DNA of 64,000 nt from the sequence record MT446411.1; one strand, given 5' to 3'. This stretch comes from Escherichia virus TH40. Both the position numbers and the translations under genes were made by a program. This document shows positions 16,996 to 30,685 of this stretch, piece by piece (position 1 is the stretch's first letter; every line of letters starts with the position of its first letter). The notes under the pieces were generated by a model. The model was given only the letters and a program-made list of their open reading frames with translations, searched no databases and was not told where the DNA came from.

Positions 16996-18823
16996 GCGTC
17001 GCATTCATCCAATCTTTGCGCAGCTTCGGTTCTTTACCGAAAAGCATTTCGAACAGTTCTTTCCAGTTGTCAGGTAATTGAACAACTTCGAATACCGGTT
17101 CGAGCAATACTCGCTTGTACTCGGAATCTTCCAGCGAACCCAGTCCCTTGATATATCTGATGGTATGCTTTGGAAGTTTATCCTTAGCTTCTTCATAATC
17201 AGGGAGAGAATAGAACCATTCTTGTTTATCTTTGAGTTGTGCAATAATAACAGGAGTTTTCACAAAGCGAATACGTCCTTCATGGAACAGCTCCGGCCAG
17301 TTACTGAAAAATGCCAATAACGATGGATAGATACTACCGACACCATCCACATCCGCATCTGTCATGATAGCGATATTTCGGTAATTCATATTCTCGGCTG
17401 GTTGTCCAATCGTTAATCCAGTAATCGCACACACATCAAAGGCTTCTGCGTTTTTCATAACTTCAACAGCTTTCAGACCCCATGTGTTTTTGAACTTACC
17501 GCGCAACGGATAAGCGCCTTGCAATTCACGGTCACGAACCTTGATAAACGGACCCGTTGCAGAATCCCCTTCGGTCAGGAACAAAGTCGTTTCCAGCTTG
17601 TCATTGCCCCATTCGTTGGCCTTGATATGTTTCTGTACCTTGGCCTTTGAAGCTTTCTTATTCGCCTTAGTCTCTGCTGCTTTCTCTGCAGCCAATTTAC
17701 GAGCCAATGCAGCTTCCACAATCGGCATAATCAGCGATTCATTTTTCAGAATAGCTTGAGCAATCTTCTTGGCATCGATTTGGATATGGTTTCGAATTTC
17801 ACCAGCCGGAGAAGTCAATCGCTCTTTAGTCTGGGAATCAAATCGCATGTTGCTCATATCGCGGATGAACATAAGCATGGTGAGGCATTCTTTAACTCGT
17901 GCCTTGGTTACTTCGATGCCTTTATATTTGCGCTTAATGGCTGGTTGGAGGTGTTCACAGATATCATCCATAACACATTCAACGTGGTGCCCGCCATTCT
18001 TTGTATGAATGTTGTTGACATAAGTCAGCTGACGGAAGCCGTCTGGACTGGTCGTGAAAGCCATTGATACTGTATCAGTTTCCTGAATAACAACTTCGGT
18101 ACCGAATTGCTTGGAGAACTTCTTGAAGTTGCCATCAACCTTTTTACCATTAAAGGTGAACTGAATATCCGGGTAAACAACCGCAAGAGTCTGCAGACGG
18201 TCCAATGTAATATCCAGATAAATCTGGGACAAACTATTTTCTTCGAAGTGACTAAAGTCCGGAACAAAGATAACAGTTGTGCCTTTACCCTTAGATTTCT
18301 TGGTAGACCAACCTTTGTTTTCCATACCGTTGGAGCAGTTAACAGTAATTTCATTTGCACCATCAGCGGTAATCCCTGTAAACAATACAGAGAAAATATT
18401 GGTCAGAGAAGACCCGACGCCATTCATCCCACCGGTTTTACGTTCAGCATCATCACCGAAGTTGCCCCCGGCTTTTGGAATAGTCCACGCTGCAACGGGC
18501 CCAGGGATTTGTTCACCGCTTTGGTCGACAACCATTGCTTGTGGAATACCACGACCATTATCAGAAACTGAAATCTGGTTATCTTTAATTTGAACATCAA
18601 TTTTATTGGCAAATTTAAAACTGGTGCGAATTGCTTCATCAACAGAGTTATCGATAATTTCATCAATCAGTTTTACAATACCAGGAACATAGCTTACGGA
18701 CTTATATTCACCAAACAAGAATCGCTCATGCGCTTCATTTGAACTGGAACCAATATACATCCCGGAACGTTTTTTGATATGCTCGACGTCCGAGAGTACT
18801 TTAATTTCATTATTAATCATCAT
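16991..18823 (-). CDS. 39: DNA topoisomerase II large subunit gp39 (GyrB-like), single uninterrupted ORF
   Basis: 610 aa; GHKL ATPase and TOPRIM-like motifs; longer than T4 gp39, consistent with a 39+60 fusion. Confidence 0.9.
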   Translation of the reverse strand: MMINNEIKVLSDVEHIKKRSGMYIGSSSNEAHERFLFGEYKSVSYVPGIVKLIDEIIDNSVDEAIRTSFKFANKIDVQIKDNQISVSDNGRGIPQAMVVDQSGEQIPGPVAAWTIPKAGGNFGDDAERKTGGMNGVGSSLTNIFSVLFTGITADGANEITVNCSNGMENKGWSTKKSKGKGTTVIFVPDFSHFEENSLSQIYLDITLDRLQTLAVVYPDIQFTFNGKKVDGNFKKFSKQFGTEVVIQETDTVSMAFTTSPDGFRQLTYVNNIHTKNGGHHVECVMDDICEHLQPAIKRKYKGIEVTKARVKECLTMLMFIRDMSNMRFDSQTKERLTSPAGEIRNHIQIDAKKIAQAILKNESLIMPIVEAALARKLAAEKAAETKANKKASKAKVQKHIKANEWGNDKLETTLFLTEGDSATGPFIKVRDRELQGAYPLRGKFKNTWGLKAVEVMKNAEAFDVCAITGLTIGQPAENMNYRNIAIMTDADVDGVGSIYPSLLAFFSNWPELFHEGRIRFVKTPVIIAQLKDKQEWFYSLPDYEEAKDKLPKHTIRYIKGLGSLEDSEYKRVLLEPVFEVVQLPDNWKELFEMLFGKEPKLRKDWMNATL

Positions 18824-28236: not shown

Positions 28237-28470
28237 TTAAACTACTGGGGTAGGCGTAAACATCGCCGCGTTCTTAGTTCGCCAATCAGCTGCACTAGAC
28301 GCTACGGTGACATAAGCGGCCTTTTCGGAAGGAAAAGTCTGATAGTGTGCATTCGCAATACGATGCTCATTTGAATAGATTTCAAACGGAACAGATACTT
28401 CAACACCTTTAACTTCTTTACCTTCACCAGCTGGATGCGTAAAGGTTTTGATATTAACGAAACCACCCAT
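28237..28470 (-). CDS. soc: small outer capsid protein Soc
   Basis: 77 aa; ...VNIKTF...HYQTFPSEKAAY matches T4 Soc. Confidence 0.8.
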   Translation of the reverse strand: MGGFVNIKTFTHPAGEGKEVKGVEVSVPFEIYSNEHRIANAHYQTFPSEKAAYVTVASSAADWRTKNAAMFTPTPVV

Positions 28471-28501: not shown

Positions 28502-28509
28502 TATTTATA
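28502..28509 (-). promoter_or_regulatory. T4-type late promoter TATAAATA for soc
   Basis: Exact rc TATAAATA ~30 nt upstream of soc ATG. Confidence 0.6.
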
Positions 28510-28511
28510 AC

Positions 28512-29030
28512 TTAATAACCCCGGTCCTGACGAGCGAAGTTTTCAGCATTTTTCAGGTAATACAGTTTAAAGATTTCTTCTGCTGACAGACCAAGACCAT
28601 GGAACATGTTCAGAACAAAGTGCAGGATGTCAATCATCTCAAATTTAATTTCGAGCTGGTCTTCAGGAGACAACTCATCAATACGACGATTACGGAATTC
28701 AGCATGTTGGGCTTTCCACGGTTTCCAACAACTTGAGGCTGCTTTCTCGCCATTAGACATACCCCCGAGAGAAGTCAGAAGTTCACGGAATTCATCATCG
28801 ACATAATCTTTCTGGTTGCGAAGCCATGCAACAACATCACCTGCAGTAGCCAATTCATCTGGATGTGAGTTATATTCAGGTTTTTCGGTAGCCAGACGAA
28901 CTTGCAATGATTTCTGCATATCAAGCATAATCTGCAGCGGGTCAATACCTTTTGTAATTGCATTGTCATAAGCCAGAGCAGCTTTATCAACACCGGCAAT
29001 CAGTTGTGAACATTCATTAAAATGAGCCAT
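28512..29030 (-). CDS. 56: dCTP pyrophosphatase gp56 (MazG-like)
   Basis: Trimmed to MAHFNECS...; ...DEFRELLTSLG...EIKFE.IDILHFVLNMF...KLYYLKN.ENFARQDRGY matches T4 gp56. Confidence 0.85.
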   Translation of the reverse strand: MAHFNECSQLIAGVDKAALAYDNAITKGIDPLQIMLDMQKSLQVRLATEKPEYNSHPDELATAGDVVAWLRNQKDYVDDEFRELLTSLGGMSNGEKAASSCWKPWKAQHAEFRNRRIDELSPEDQLEIKFEMIDILHFVLNMFHGLGLSAEEIFKLYYLKNAENFARQDRGY

Positions 29031-29091
29031 TATATTTTTCCTTATCAATTCATGTTGTTTTGTATGTTAATTATATCATATTGGTTTGAAG

Positions 29092-29099
29092 CATAAATA
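29092..29099 (+). promoter_or_regulatory. near-consensus late promoter CATAAATA
   Basis: 16 nt upstream of ATG 29116, followed by SD aaaggagg. Confidence 0.35.
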
Positions 29100-29115
29100 C
29101 AAGAAAGGAGGATAT

Positions 29116-29313
29116 ATGCTAAAACTATCTAGTCTAATTCAAGCCATCAAAGACAGTCGTAAGCGAACAATTCTGGTCCTTTCGATACTCTGTTTAGTTC
29201 TACTCTGGAACTTCGTTGTTGCCCCTGTTGCATTGACACATGGTGTTATATTACCAGTCATTGCACTCGAATCAGTTGTAGATATTTTACTGGCATTAAT
29301 CGGCCTTATATAG
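29116..29313 (+). CDS. small membrane protein (65 aa) on the opposite strand
   Basis: MLKLSSLIQAIKDSRKRTILVLSILCLVLLWNFVV...; strong SD; two hydrophobic helices. Confidence 0.5.
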   Translation: MLKLSSLIQAIKDSRKRTILVLSILCLVLLWNFVVAPVALTHGVILPVIALESVVDILLALIGLI

Positions 29314-29339
29314 ATGGAATAATGTGAATATTATTCCAT
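29314..29339 (+). other. perfect 10-bp inverted repeat ATGGAATAAT/ATTATTCCAT
   Basis: Immediately after the stop of 29116-29313. Confidence 0.55.
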
Positions 29340-29431
29340 CGGATTTGGAAATTAACCAGTAAGAAAGACAAGAAACATCATGGACTTTTTAGCCCATGAT
29401 GTTTTTCTGCGGAACTTACCGGAATTCCTTC

Positions 29432-30460
29432 CTAAACTTTTGCGTACTTCGAAAGTCGCATTCTTGCCATCAACCCTTGAGCAACGTTATCGGCCATATA
29501 TGATTCGATTTGTTCAGGGGTTGCACCCTCCGATTTAACCATCTCATTTATGTCTTTCGTATGCCATGGTGCATTGTCCCAGAACATAACAGCTTCGCCA
29601 GCTTCAACGAGTTTCTTCATACGTTTAATCGTATCCGGATGTCTTGGCTCGTTGTCCATTACCCATACTCGGGTTTCAGCATAAGGAACGGATTCCAATG
29701 CTAATGTTCCGCCGGTTATCGCAATGCTGTTAGGGATAAACAAACTATCAATCGGACCTTCCATTACCCACACGCGCTTGCGCTCATCAATCTTGTCTAC
29801 TCCATAGACTTTTGAAGCTTCTGGGTGAGCTTTGATTGTGATATATTTTTGTGGTGCATCTTTGCGAAGAGCTCGTCCTTGGAAAGATTCGATTTCTTTT
29901 TTGCCGTTGAAGATAGGAATAACCAAGCGTGGTTCATTCGTTTCATTCTTATACGTCCCAGGATTAACGGAGTTAACTAATGCAGGCCATTTGTTTGTAA
30001 ACCATAACCGGTTCCAAACATTGCTCGGAATACACCGACTTTTTACATACTTAACTATCGGATACTCTTCTGGTAAAGTATCGATTCTTTCACAAAAAGC
30101 AAGCTCTTCAATAACCGGAGTTTTTTCTGGTTCTTTCGGAGCTTCTGCAACTTCATTACGTTGTCGACCGAAGGCATTCTCCTTGTACTTCTCGACCATA
30201 TATTCCCGGTGCAAATCCGGCTCAAACTCTTTTATGTATTTGCTTATATGCGTGGAGTAGTCACAGTTAAAACATTTCACGTAAACCGCACCATCAGACG
30301 GATTGGTATACGCCCAGAATCGAGCCTTGTGCGAATCTTTCTGGGAGTCACCACAAACCTTGCAACGACAGTTTGCCTTAAATGTGCTCCCGGTGACTTC
30401 TCTATAACGTGGTTGATACGATAAAGCTCTGACTGCAAATTCTCTATCAATATATGACAT
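29432..30460 (-). CDS. 61: DNA primase gp61
   Basis: 342 aa; N-terminal Cys zinc motif, TOPRIM-like core, same length as T4 gp61. Confidence 0.85.
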   Translation of the reverse strand: MSYIDREFAVRALSYQPRYREVTGSTFKANCRCKVCGDSQKDSHKARFWAYTNPSDGAVYVKCFNCDYSTHISKYIKEFEPDLHREYMVEKYKENAFGRQRNEVAEAPKEPEKTPVIEELAFCERIDTLPEEYPIVKYVKSRCIPSNVWNRLWFTNKWPALVNSVNPGTYKNETNEPRLVIPIFNGKKEIESFQGRALRKDAPQKYITIKAHPEASKVYGVDKIDERKRVWVMEGPIDSLFIPNSIAITGGTLALESVPYAETRVWVMDNEPRHPDTIKRMKKLVEAGEAVMFWDNAPWHTKDINEMVKSEGATPEQIESYMADNVAQGLMARMRLSKYAKV

Positions 30461-30492: not shown

Positions 30493-30660
30493 TTATACTG
30501 TAGGTTTATCGTCTTTATTCTTACGCTTTTTTGATGGGATTTGTTCAGGGCCTTTATTGACAACTGCCCCGGAAGTGGTACCTGTTGCGATATTAGTTGG
30601 GTTTCCACCTGCATCACCGGCAACCATATCTTCATTGATAAAATCTTTGAATGTTTTCAT
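30493..30660 (-). CDS. small internal-protein-like peptide with capsid-targeting-like N-terminus
   Basis: 55 aa MKTFKDFINEDMVAGDAGG...SKKRKNKDDKPTV; SD aaagggggg; late promoter upstream. Confidence 0.45.
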   Translation of the reverse strand: MKTFKDFINEDMVAGDAGGNPTNIATGTTSGAVVNKGPEQIPSKKRKNKDDKPTV

Positions 30661-30677: not shown

Positions 30678-30685
30678 TATTTATA
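30678..30685 (-). promoter_or_regulatory. T4-type late promoter TATAAATA
   Basis: Exact rc TATAAATA 17 nt upstream of ATG 30660. Confidence 0.55.

Follow-up and report, generated by a model that had tools for sequence, protein, structure and literature searches.

The window analysed here is a 64,000-nucleotide (nt) stretch of the Escherichia virus TH40 genome (sequence record MT446411.1). Between its leftward genes 56 and 61 lies a short open reading frame (ORF) of 65 amino acids (aa) that is located on the plus strand, whereas the genes around it (soc, 56, 61, 61.1 and others) are all located on the minus strand. This arrangement raises the question of whether the ORF is a gene at all, when it would be expressed and what its product might do. 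The window represents a T4-like phage of the genus Gaprivervirus; the record closest to it, that of Escherichia phage EAWsc9, is 98.4% identical over the 2.1 kb compared. Our analysis suggests that the ORF is, with near certainty, a genuine protein-coding gene. The overall explanation which fits the locus best, and in which we have high confidence, is that it encodes a conserved late inner-membrane accessory protein of the Tevenvirinae. The original prediction, which was made from the letters of the window, had placed a plus-strand ORF of this length between the two leftward genes; its coordinates are borne out by our reading (Table 1) and the frame shows selection of the coding type.

The protein matches the profile of phrog_2024, a family of unknown function, from end to end (E=6.4e-26, residues 1-65 against profile positions 1-65 of 65). 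A tblastn search with the protein of the window retrieves 692 phage records, and searches with two distant members retrieve 182 and 594 records, these sets being partly overlapping. Homologues are present in at least ten genera of the Tevenvirinae, of which Tequatrovirus (with T4, T2, T6, RB32 and RB51 among the carriers), Mosigvirus, Gaprivervirus, Dhakavirus, Karamvirus, Jiaodavirus, Kanagawavirus, Moonvirus and Gelderlandvirus are named. The homologues are located on the strand opposite to their neighbours and are convergent with the primase gene 61, typically with a 4-nt overlap with its stop codon. This position is seen in the window, T4, RB51, fPS-65, JK36, CkP1, Mineola, KLB31, Ursula, NM4.3, AKM_NP4, PSD9, NC-G and metagenomic contigs. 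The TH40 ORF is a member of the family to which the RB69ORF029w and RB32ORF030w proteins belong, and with the same length, the same position and the same upstream motif and Shine-Dalgarno (SD) sequence we find no difference between them. The frame given in the list of ORFs opens at an upstream TTG (29086), and the ATG at 29116 is its eleventh codon. The SD sequence AAAGGAGG, which the original prediction had described as very strong, is located 4 nt before this ATG, and an AAGGAG or GGAGG element is kept at every homologous locus compared.

A sceptical explanation of these data would be that the ORF is spurious and owes its conservation to overlapping regulatory DNA or RNA elements such as promoters, terminators or origin-related sequences. 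Indeed, the T4 reference annotation omits the ORF, other signals (a MotA-type promoter and hairpins) are present in the region, and oriA of T4 is located close by, in gene 56. However, the frame is intact in hundreds of genomes of the genera listed above and stays intact down to ~20-30% identity. Pairwise ratios of non-synonymous to synonymous substitution (dN/dS) range from 0.09 to 0.68, substitutions being most frequent at the third codon position, followed by the first and then the second, and the SD sequence is conserved together with the frame. An intact minus-strand gene overlapping the ORF in homologues was the finding that, according to the original prediction, would speak against it; in T4 there is no overlapping minus-strand ORF, and it is the plus frame that shows the coding-type selection. 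In addition, second copies of the gene have been lost to frameshifts and deletions, with one intact copy retained in each case. We consider a spurious ORF to be extremely improbable.

The family is narrow, as an exhaustive profile search of 1.84 billion representative proteins gave only 11 matches. Ten of these are family members or fragments, and the remaining one, a repetitive protein of 449 aa, was regarded as spurious. Near gene 61 we found nothing related in five Straboviridae outgroups from outside the Tevenvirinae (Slopekvirus, Krischvirus, Pseudotevenvirus, an Acinetobacter Twarogvirinae phage and Biquartavirus), and in two of the five, gene 56 follows within 7-14 nt after gene 61. Because the locus is empty in these outgroups, the unit looks like an insertion specific to the Tevenvirinae. 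Homologues from outside the T4-like phages (69 aa, phrog_2024 E=6e-11) are present in two siphovirus-like contigs (L021, 3260-5082 and L026, 6260-8083). There they belong to a conserved block consisting of a tail-tip gene, a 94-aa protein with a transmembrane (TM) segment and a coiled coil, Endo VII, the homologue itself, a basic 179-aa protein and a 105-aa protein; gp38-type adhesin domains are also present in one siphovirus-like contig. No named phage with a siphovirus-like homologue was found. Over the sequences searched, the phrog_2024 family is limited to the Tevenvirinae and a few siphovirus-like metagenomic contigs. It is nearly certain that this is a real gene, which is already annotated as hypothetical in many genomes but is absent from the T4 reference; we take it to be an accessory gene of the Tevenvirinae.

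The RefSeq record of T4 (NC_000866) carries no feature in the gap between dam and gene 61 (17626-17934; stretch L005, 2627-2935). The T4 homologue, a protein of 66 aa, is encoded at 17738-17938, overlaps gene 61 and is preceded by GATAAATA (17709-17716) and by AAAGGAGG. For the exact T4 protein we found no NCBI or UniProt accession in a collection of 15 billion proteins. The names in use, RB69ORF029w and RB32ORF030w, were given by the annotators of RB32, RB51 and RB69, and otherwise the protein is called 'hypothetical'. Two automatic labels call it a holin, namely 'holin family protein' in the EAWsc9 record and 'Holin' in UniProt for the OE5505 homologue. A 'head morphogenesis' label in the T6 record was set aside as unreliable, since the labels of neighbouring genes are misplaced too; the product names in this record misfit the genes, for example 'ferredoxin' on gene 56 and 'terminase' on small ORFs. 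As the T4 reference annotation omits the gene, studies of expression, of the proteome and of knock-downs that rely on this annotation have probably passed it over. T4 is the reference organism of phage biology, and yet the gene is missing from its reference annotation. With its small size, its easy deletion and, in many phages, its freedom from overlap, the gene lends itself to a direct test of its role.

The second part of the question concerns the time of expression. Upstream of the ORF, CATAAATA matches the T4-type late promoter consensus TATAAATA at seven of eight positions, so that the single mismatch noted in the original prediction is confirmed. The motif as such is unremarkable in number (one copy in 64 kb on both strands, where ~5 are expected, a count that is not above chance), and it is its conserved position across lineages that exceeds chance. 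A motif of this type is located 12-22 nt upstream of the start codon in every intact T4-like lineage with a stand-alone gene (~15 lineages). In ten of the 13 lineages examined first it reads NATAAATA, ending 12-22 nt before the start codon, while Karamvirus, Moonvirus and phage Ursula, which make up the rest of the 13, and also Gelderlandvirus have ATTAAATA at 15 nt. Dhakavirus PSD9 carries the perfect consensus TATAAATA 21 nt upstream, and the variants seen among homologues are of the form C/G/A-ATAAATA. With the AT-rich local composition taken into account, ATAAATA would be expected in this slot by chance with a probability of ~0.009 per lineage, and the flanking intergenic sequence cannot otherwise be aligned between genera. 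The conserved position and the perfect copy in PSD9 make the late-promoter reading considerably stronger than it was in the original prediction. Upstream of the siphovirus-like homologue, which belongs to a phage type without reason to use gp55, the motif is not present. An idea that selection keeps the promoter weak, the first base of the motif never being T, was dropped because PSD9 has the perfect TATAAATA.

Comparison with T4 suggests that a deviation of this kind is tolerable. Among 50 listed T4 late sites, 32 are perfect and nine have A at -13, which is the most variable position in the list, and a TA-to-AT variant is listed as well (PMC2988020). The nine sites with A at -13 imply that the first position of the element is the tolerant one. 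Early and middle transcripts of T4 are all of one polarity while late transcripts are of either polarity (PMC2988020), and the TH40 ORF is located on the strand opposite to the early and middle one. The candidate site thus resembles the T4 late genes with variant gp55 promoters (nine AATAAATA sites are listed for T4; PMC2988020) in having an 8-bp element at the right distance with no requirement for a -35 element, a change at -13 and a gene oriented against the early strand. It differs from them in that A is the commoner deviation at -13, C and G being found there less often, and in that the TH40 leader is unusually short; moreover, the TH40 site is a candidate known from its sequence. In our proposal, RNA polymerase with gp55 would transcribe the gene from a mostly sub-consensus late promoter. 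The predicted transcription start in the window is located at ~29105 (+1 being 6 nt past the element), giving a leader of ~11 nt, and across lineages the leader would be very short (~9-16 nt), starting at or just before the SD sequence and always including it.

The late motif is located back-to-back with a MotA-type middle-promoter-like site of gene 56 on the opposite strand, whose TG is complementary to the CA of CATAAATA. The MotA-type pattern is present 12 times in the window against 4.0 expected (none of 100 shuffles reaches 12), and nine of the 12 sites are on the minus strand.

The product appears to be a membrane protein, although with a topology simpler than first proposed. Its N-terminus is basic, with RKR directly before the hydrophobic stretch in TH40 and KKK, HKKK or NKGK in the other types. 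Residues ~18-41 form a firm TM helix (summed Hessa dG of -2.4 kcal/mol in TH40 and -0.6 to +2.8 in full-length homologues). The C-terminal 23 residues are at +3 kcal/mol on the same scale in TH40, which is the most hydrophobic of the family, and reach up to +13 in distant homologues, where this part bears E, K, R, H and Q. The AlphaFold model (mean predicted local distance difference test score of 86) contains a helix from residue 2 to 41, a non-helical stretch from 42 to 50 and a 14-residue helix from 51 to 64. Of the two TM helices in the original prediction the first is therefore firm, whereas the C-terminal segment is marginal in TH40 and clearly not transmembrane in distant homologues by the Hessa scores. 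At the level of the family we infer a topology with the N-terminus inside (N-in) and one TM helix, followed, on the outer side of the membrane, by a proline-rich turn and a short amphipathic helix of acidic character. The TH40 protein ends in ...DILLALIGLI, and its tail has a net charge of -2 with zero basic residues, as in the type A homologues.

The residues which are invariant or nearly so in intact members are the basic cluster, W31-(N/D)32, P37.A39, G43, P47 and an acidic residue at position 52 (E52 in TH40). In membrane proteins, an Asn that is invariant within a TM helix would point to association between helices. The product would enter the inner membrane N-in, guided by the basic cluster before the TM helix, and leave at the periplasmic face its tail of ~23 residues, in which the proline-rich turn and the short amphipathic helix are located. 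The intramembrane Trp-Asn, the Pro.Ala pair, the juxtamembrane Gly/Leu-Pro and the acidic residue may then mediate association with itself or with a membrane partner. The claim of a small membrane protein gene on the opposite strand is upheld, and this strand is transcribed only late in T4-type phages (PMC2988020). Late expression is well supported, although deduced from the promoter-type motif and the strand, and together with N-in insertion into the membrane we regard it as probable.

Several observations weigh against the overall explanation given at the outset. The in vivo relative strength of variant late promoters is not known (PMC2988020), and the promoter is non-consensus in most lineages. 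The predicted start in TH40 places the SD sequence at the very 5' end of the ~11-nt leader, and the intact allele of Dhakavirus NC-G has no motif of its own and would have to rely on one located 190 nt upstream. The first base of the motif, C, is also constrained by the MotA box, so that part of the conservation at the Gaprivervirus level has a second explanation. Searches of Pfam, NCBIfam and PADLOC gave no match for the TH40 protein or for distant members (in Pfam none at E<=1), and a Foldseek search of the AlphaFold model against viral structures (BFVD) gave the family's own members only at E<0.05. The T6 record (AP018814; stretch L004, 1992-2192) has ATT where the ATG is expected. Our literature search found nothing on this ORF, and no transcript, ribosome or protein data for the locus. 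As a separate observation, the ORF is frameshifted in ECCR664 (L018), a sparsely annotated record of 134 kb.

What, then, might a late inner-membrane protein of this kind do? A membrane-bound protein that is shared by the whole subfamily and probably made late is what one would expect of an accessory factor in the timing or inhibition of lysis or in exclusion between phages; how lysis inhibition is signalled is still incompletely explained. Our best guess is that the protein, at a low dose, modulates some late event of the infection that takes place at the cell envelope. It is possible, although we would not call it probable, that this event is either lysis timing or lysis inhibition on the one hand or exclusion of superinfecting phages on the other, both roles being taken together. 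Parallels in T4 are the holin T and the antiholin RI, both of which are made late and are held in the inner membrane by a single N-in TM segment, with a part facing the periplasm; for the TH40 protein, late expression and this topology are predicted. The periplasmic parts of T and RI act through protein-protein contact. Unlike T and RI, with which we detected no sequence or profile similarity, the TH40 protein has a periplasmic part of ~23 residues instead of a globular domain and is not encoded at the t or rI locus. A more specific and rather speculative proposal is that the protein, encoded by T4 and by practically all members of its subfamily, supplies a part that is still missing from one of the classical envelope phenomena of T-even phages. 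It could cooperate with holin T or antiholin RI when lysis is inhibited, be a late exclusion factor or serve as a membrane anchor in prohead initiation. If this were true, it would act through the intramembrane Trp-Asn and the periplasmic Gly/Leu-Pro and acidic motif, and the repeated displacement of alleles described below would reflect an arms race at the membrane.

The two automatic labels suggest a different role, in which the protein is itself a holin or pinholin that permeabilises the inner membrane. Besides the labels, its small size, the presence of at least one TM helix and its probably late expression would fit such a role. With 65 aa it is close in size to the class II holins and pinholins such as S68 of phage 21 (60-70 aa), it is similarly very hydrophobic and it can be read as having two TM segments. 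However, across the family the second segment is non-TM, and the highly charged hydrophilic C-terminal tail of holins is not present. No holin family is matched in Pfam, NCBIfam or PHROGs, phrog_2024 being the sole significant PHROG, and the structure search mentioned above likewise points to no family other than its own. Linkage to an endolysin or spanin was not seen in the ~25 loci examined; the neighbours in T4-like phages are the dCTPase and the primase, and those in the siphovirus-like contigs are Endo VII and tail genes. A lysis cassette was sought around the homologue in contigs L021 and L026 and no lysin domain was found there. Lysis by T4 depends on holin T, and t-defective mutants fail to lyse, from which it follows that the phrog_2024 protein of T4 is not a sufficient holin. 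Our guess is that the protein is not an autonomous holin, and we hold the labels to be very probably wrong.

An exclusion or immunity-type protein, which would block DNA entry or another step of later phages, is somewhat easier to reconcile with the data. Such a role would suit a small inner-membrane protein with a conserved motif predicted to face the periplasm. At this locus a divergent allele class has repeatedly displaced another and left tandem remnants, a pattern that is common in genes of phage-phage conflict, the connection to this gene being our own. The siphovirus-like homologue is encoded two genes past the tail-tip gene, and the region after the tail-tip gene is occupied by Cor-type exclusion genes in other phages. 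Imm of T4 is likewise a small inner-membrane protein of T-even phages, encoded on the same early-gene arm of the genome. However, Imm is the product of an early gene and has two TM helices, and imm and sp of T4 act from early in infection, whereas the gene described here looks late, with a promoter of the late type. No immunity family of Pfam and no PADLOC model is matched, and allele exchange in the hyperplastic regions of T4-like phages is also frequent for neutral reasons. An exclusion or immunity protein thus appears unlikely to us, although less so than a holin.

A further alternative places the function in the RNA. Here the late promoter would drive an antisense transcript into gene 61 and the early genes upstream of it for their late shut-down, and the ORF would be secondary. 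Hairpins do not separate the ORF from gene 61 in T4 and most genera, where it reaches into the end of that gene, so that a late plus-strand transcript would run antisense into the primase gene. The fPS-65 record has a minus-strand terminator within the 5' part of the ORF (stretch L003, 1996-2036, minus strand), a position which implies overlapping convergent transcripts, with gene 61 transcripts antisense across the whole ORF in T4-type phages. Nevertheless, purifying selection and residues that stay invariant at ~30% identity could not be maintained by a promoter alone, and a strong SD sequence is conserved in every lineage. We judge a purely RNA-level unit to be improbable. The RNA and protein roles are not mutually exclusive, and an added antisense effect on gene 61 is possible in the phages without hairpins.

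The hairpins of the window bear on this point and on the history of the locus. The original prediction had noted a perfect 10-bp inverted repeat directly after the ORF; the repeat is perfect and adjoins the stop codon, but its arms are 11 bp long instead of 10 (hairpin 1 in Table 1). Its folding energy is ~-13 kcal/mol, with z = -3.4 on the plus strand and -5.6 on the minus strand. The window contains ~8 hairpin-type repeats with arms of at least 10 nt, two of them inside this 118-nt spacer. Hairpin 1 was not called by the terminator scan; G-C pairs make up three of its 11 pairs and the U tract is weak (tail CGGAUUUGG), so that it is no canonical terminator. A perfect stem is confined to the window, EAWsc9, ECML-359 and pEC-M719. 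In VR20, VR25, VR26 and CJ20 the stem consists of 7 Watson-Crick pairs, 2 G·T pairs and 2 mismatches, in SP18 it is deleted, and it is absent in T4, Mosigvirus and other genera in which the ORF overlaps gene 61. This distribution does not support the proposal that the palindrome forms part of the functional unit. Hairpin 2, the only call of the terminator scan here, derives from a second paralog that has decayed and whose 5' end now forms it. The window and CJ20 alone have it in perfect form, and it is imperfect and coding-like in EAWsc9, ECML-359 and pEC-M719.

The interiors of both hairpins are inverted among close relatives. The loop of hairpin 1 reads GTGAAT in TH40 and ATTCAC in EAWsc9, and the interior of hairpin 2 is ACTTTTTAGC in TH40 and GCTAAAAAGT in CJ20. 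Quasi-palindrome correction by template switching was classically described in T4, and inverted interiors among near-identical phages fit such a process, judging from the alignments.

The second paralog itself is of the Dhakavirus type. Its remnant carries an 85-nt internal deletion in the group of the window and a different, 95-nt deletion in SP18, while VR20, VR25 and VR26 keep a 46-aa fragment (MGFLTLDVFLWNLLVVPIAA...; stretch L009, 2765-2905) whose stop codon overlaps that of gene 61. The full-length allele is intact in Dhakavirus PSD9, with 66 aa (L042, 1926-2126, minus strand) and 76% identity to the 46-aa fragment. Dhakavirus NC-G (L043, 960-1380) carries this allele in frameshifted form, with an intact Mosigvirus-like one (72% identical) directly downstream. 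Read from these sequences, the T4/Mosig-type allele has displaced the resident allele twice independently, on opposite sides, with one copy apparently staying functional each time. Both hairpins would then be young and lineage-specific, having arisen as the Dhakavirus-type allele was displaced by the T4/Mosig-type allele and subsequently decayed; at most they may help to keep the convergent late and early transcripts apart. The locus offers a clear case from nature in which an allele was displaced and then decayed as a pseudogene, and in which quasi-palindromes are 'perfected' and flipped among near-identical phages. A further idea, that the allele type tracks the host genus (type A in E. coli phages), was weakened by PSD9, a phage of Shigella/E. 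coli type with a type C allele.

Table 1. Coordinates of the ORF, its signals and the neighbouring features in the window.
Feature	Position	Strand	Basis or remark
65-aa ORF, phrog_2024 family	29116-29313 (ATG 29116, TAG 29311-29313)	+	direct reading, profile match
Shine-Dalgarno sequence AAAGGAGG	29104-29111	+	4 nt before ATG
Candidate variant T4-type late promoter element CATAAATA	29092-29099	+	consensus TATAAATA, 7/8, mismatch at -13; ends 16 nt before ATG
MotA-type middle-promoter-like site for gene 56 (TGCTTCA, 11 nt, TATAAT)	29070-29093	-	pattern match; back-to-back with late motif, 2-nt overlap
Hairpin 1, perfect 11-bp inverted repeat, 6-nt loop	29313-29323 / 29330-29340		begins on the final base of the stop codon
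Hairpin 2, terminator-like for gene 61	29373-29404	-	terminator scan; folding -22 kcal/mol, z = -6
Remnant (pseudogene) of second, Dhakavirus-type paralog (MDFLAHDVFLRNL...)	29380-29435	+	alignment with VR20, VR25 and VR26; stop overlaps gene 61 stop
soc	28237-28470	-	neighbour of gene 56 in the region
Gene 56 (dCTPase), divergent neighbour	28512-29030	-	phrog_173 E=5e-45; dCTP pyrophosphatase in EAWsc9 annotation
Gene 61 (DNA primase), convergent neighbour	29432-30460	-	phrog_47 E=9e-94; 99.4% identical to EAWsc9 primase region (tblastn)

On the far side of gene 56, the interval between soc and gene 56 differs among Gapriverviruses. SP18 has two copies of soc (soca and socb; stretch L035, 1-303), CJ20 has an additional ORF of 80 aa (stretch L034, 154-396), and homing endonucleases of the segF-like kind are present in this interval in other relatives.

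Perfect copies of the late consensus are also located on the early strand. One TATAAATA lies 31 nt upstream of soc, as expected (28502-28509, minus strand). A second one (30678-30685, minus strand) is located 17 nt upstream of a 55-aa ORF (30493-30660, minus strand) at the position of gene 61.1, which suggests that this ORF may be expressed late in addition to early.

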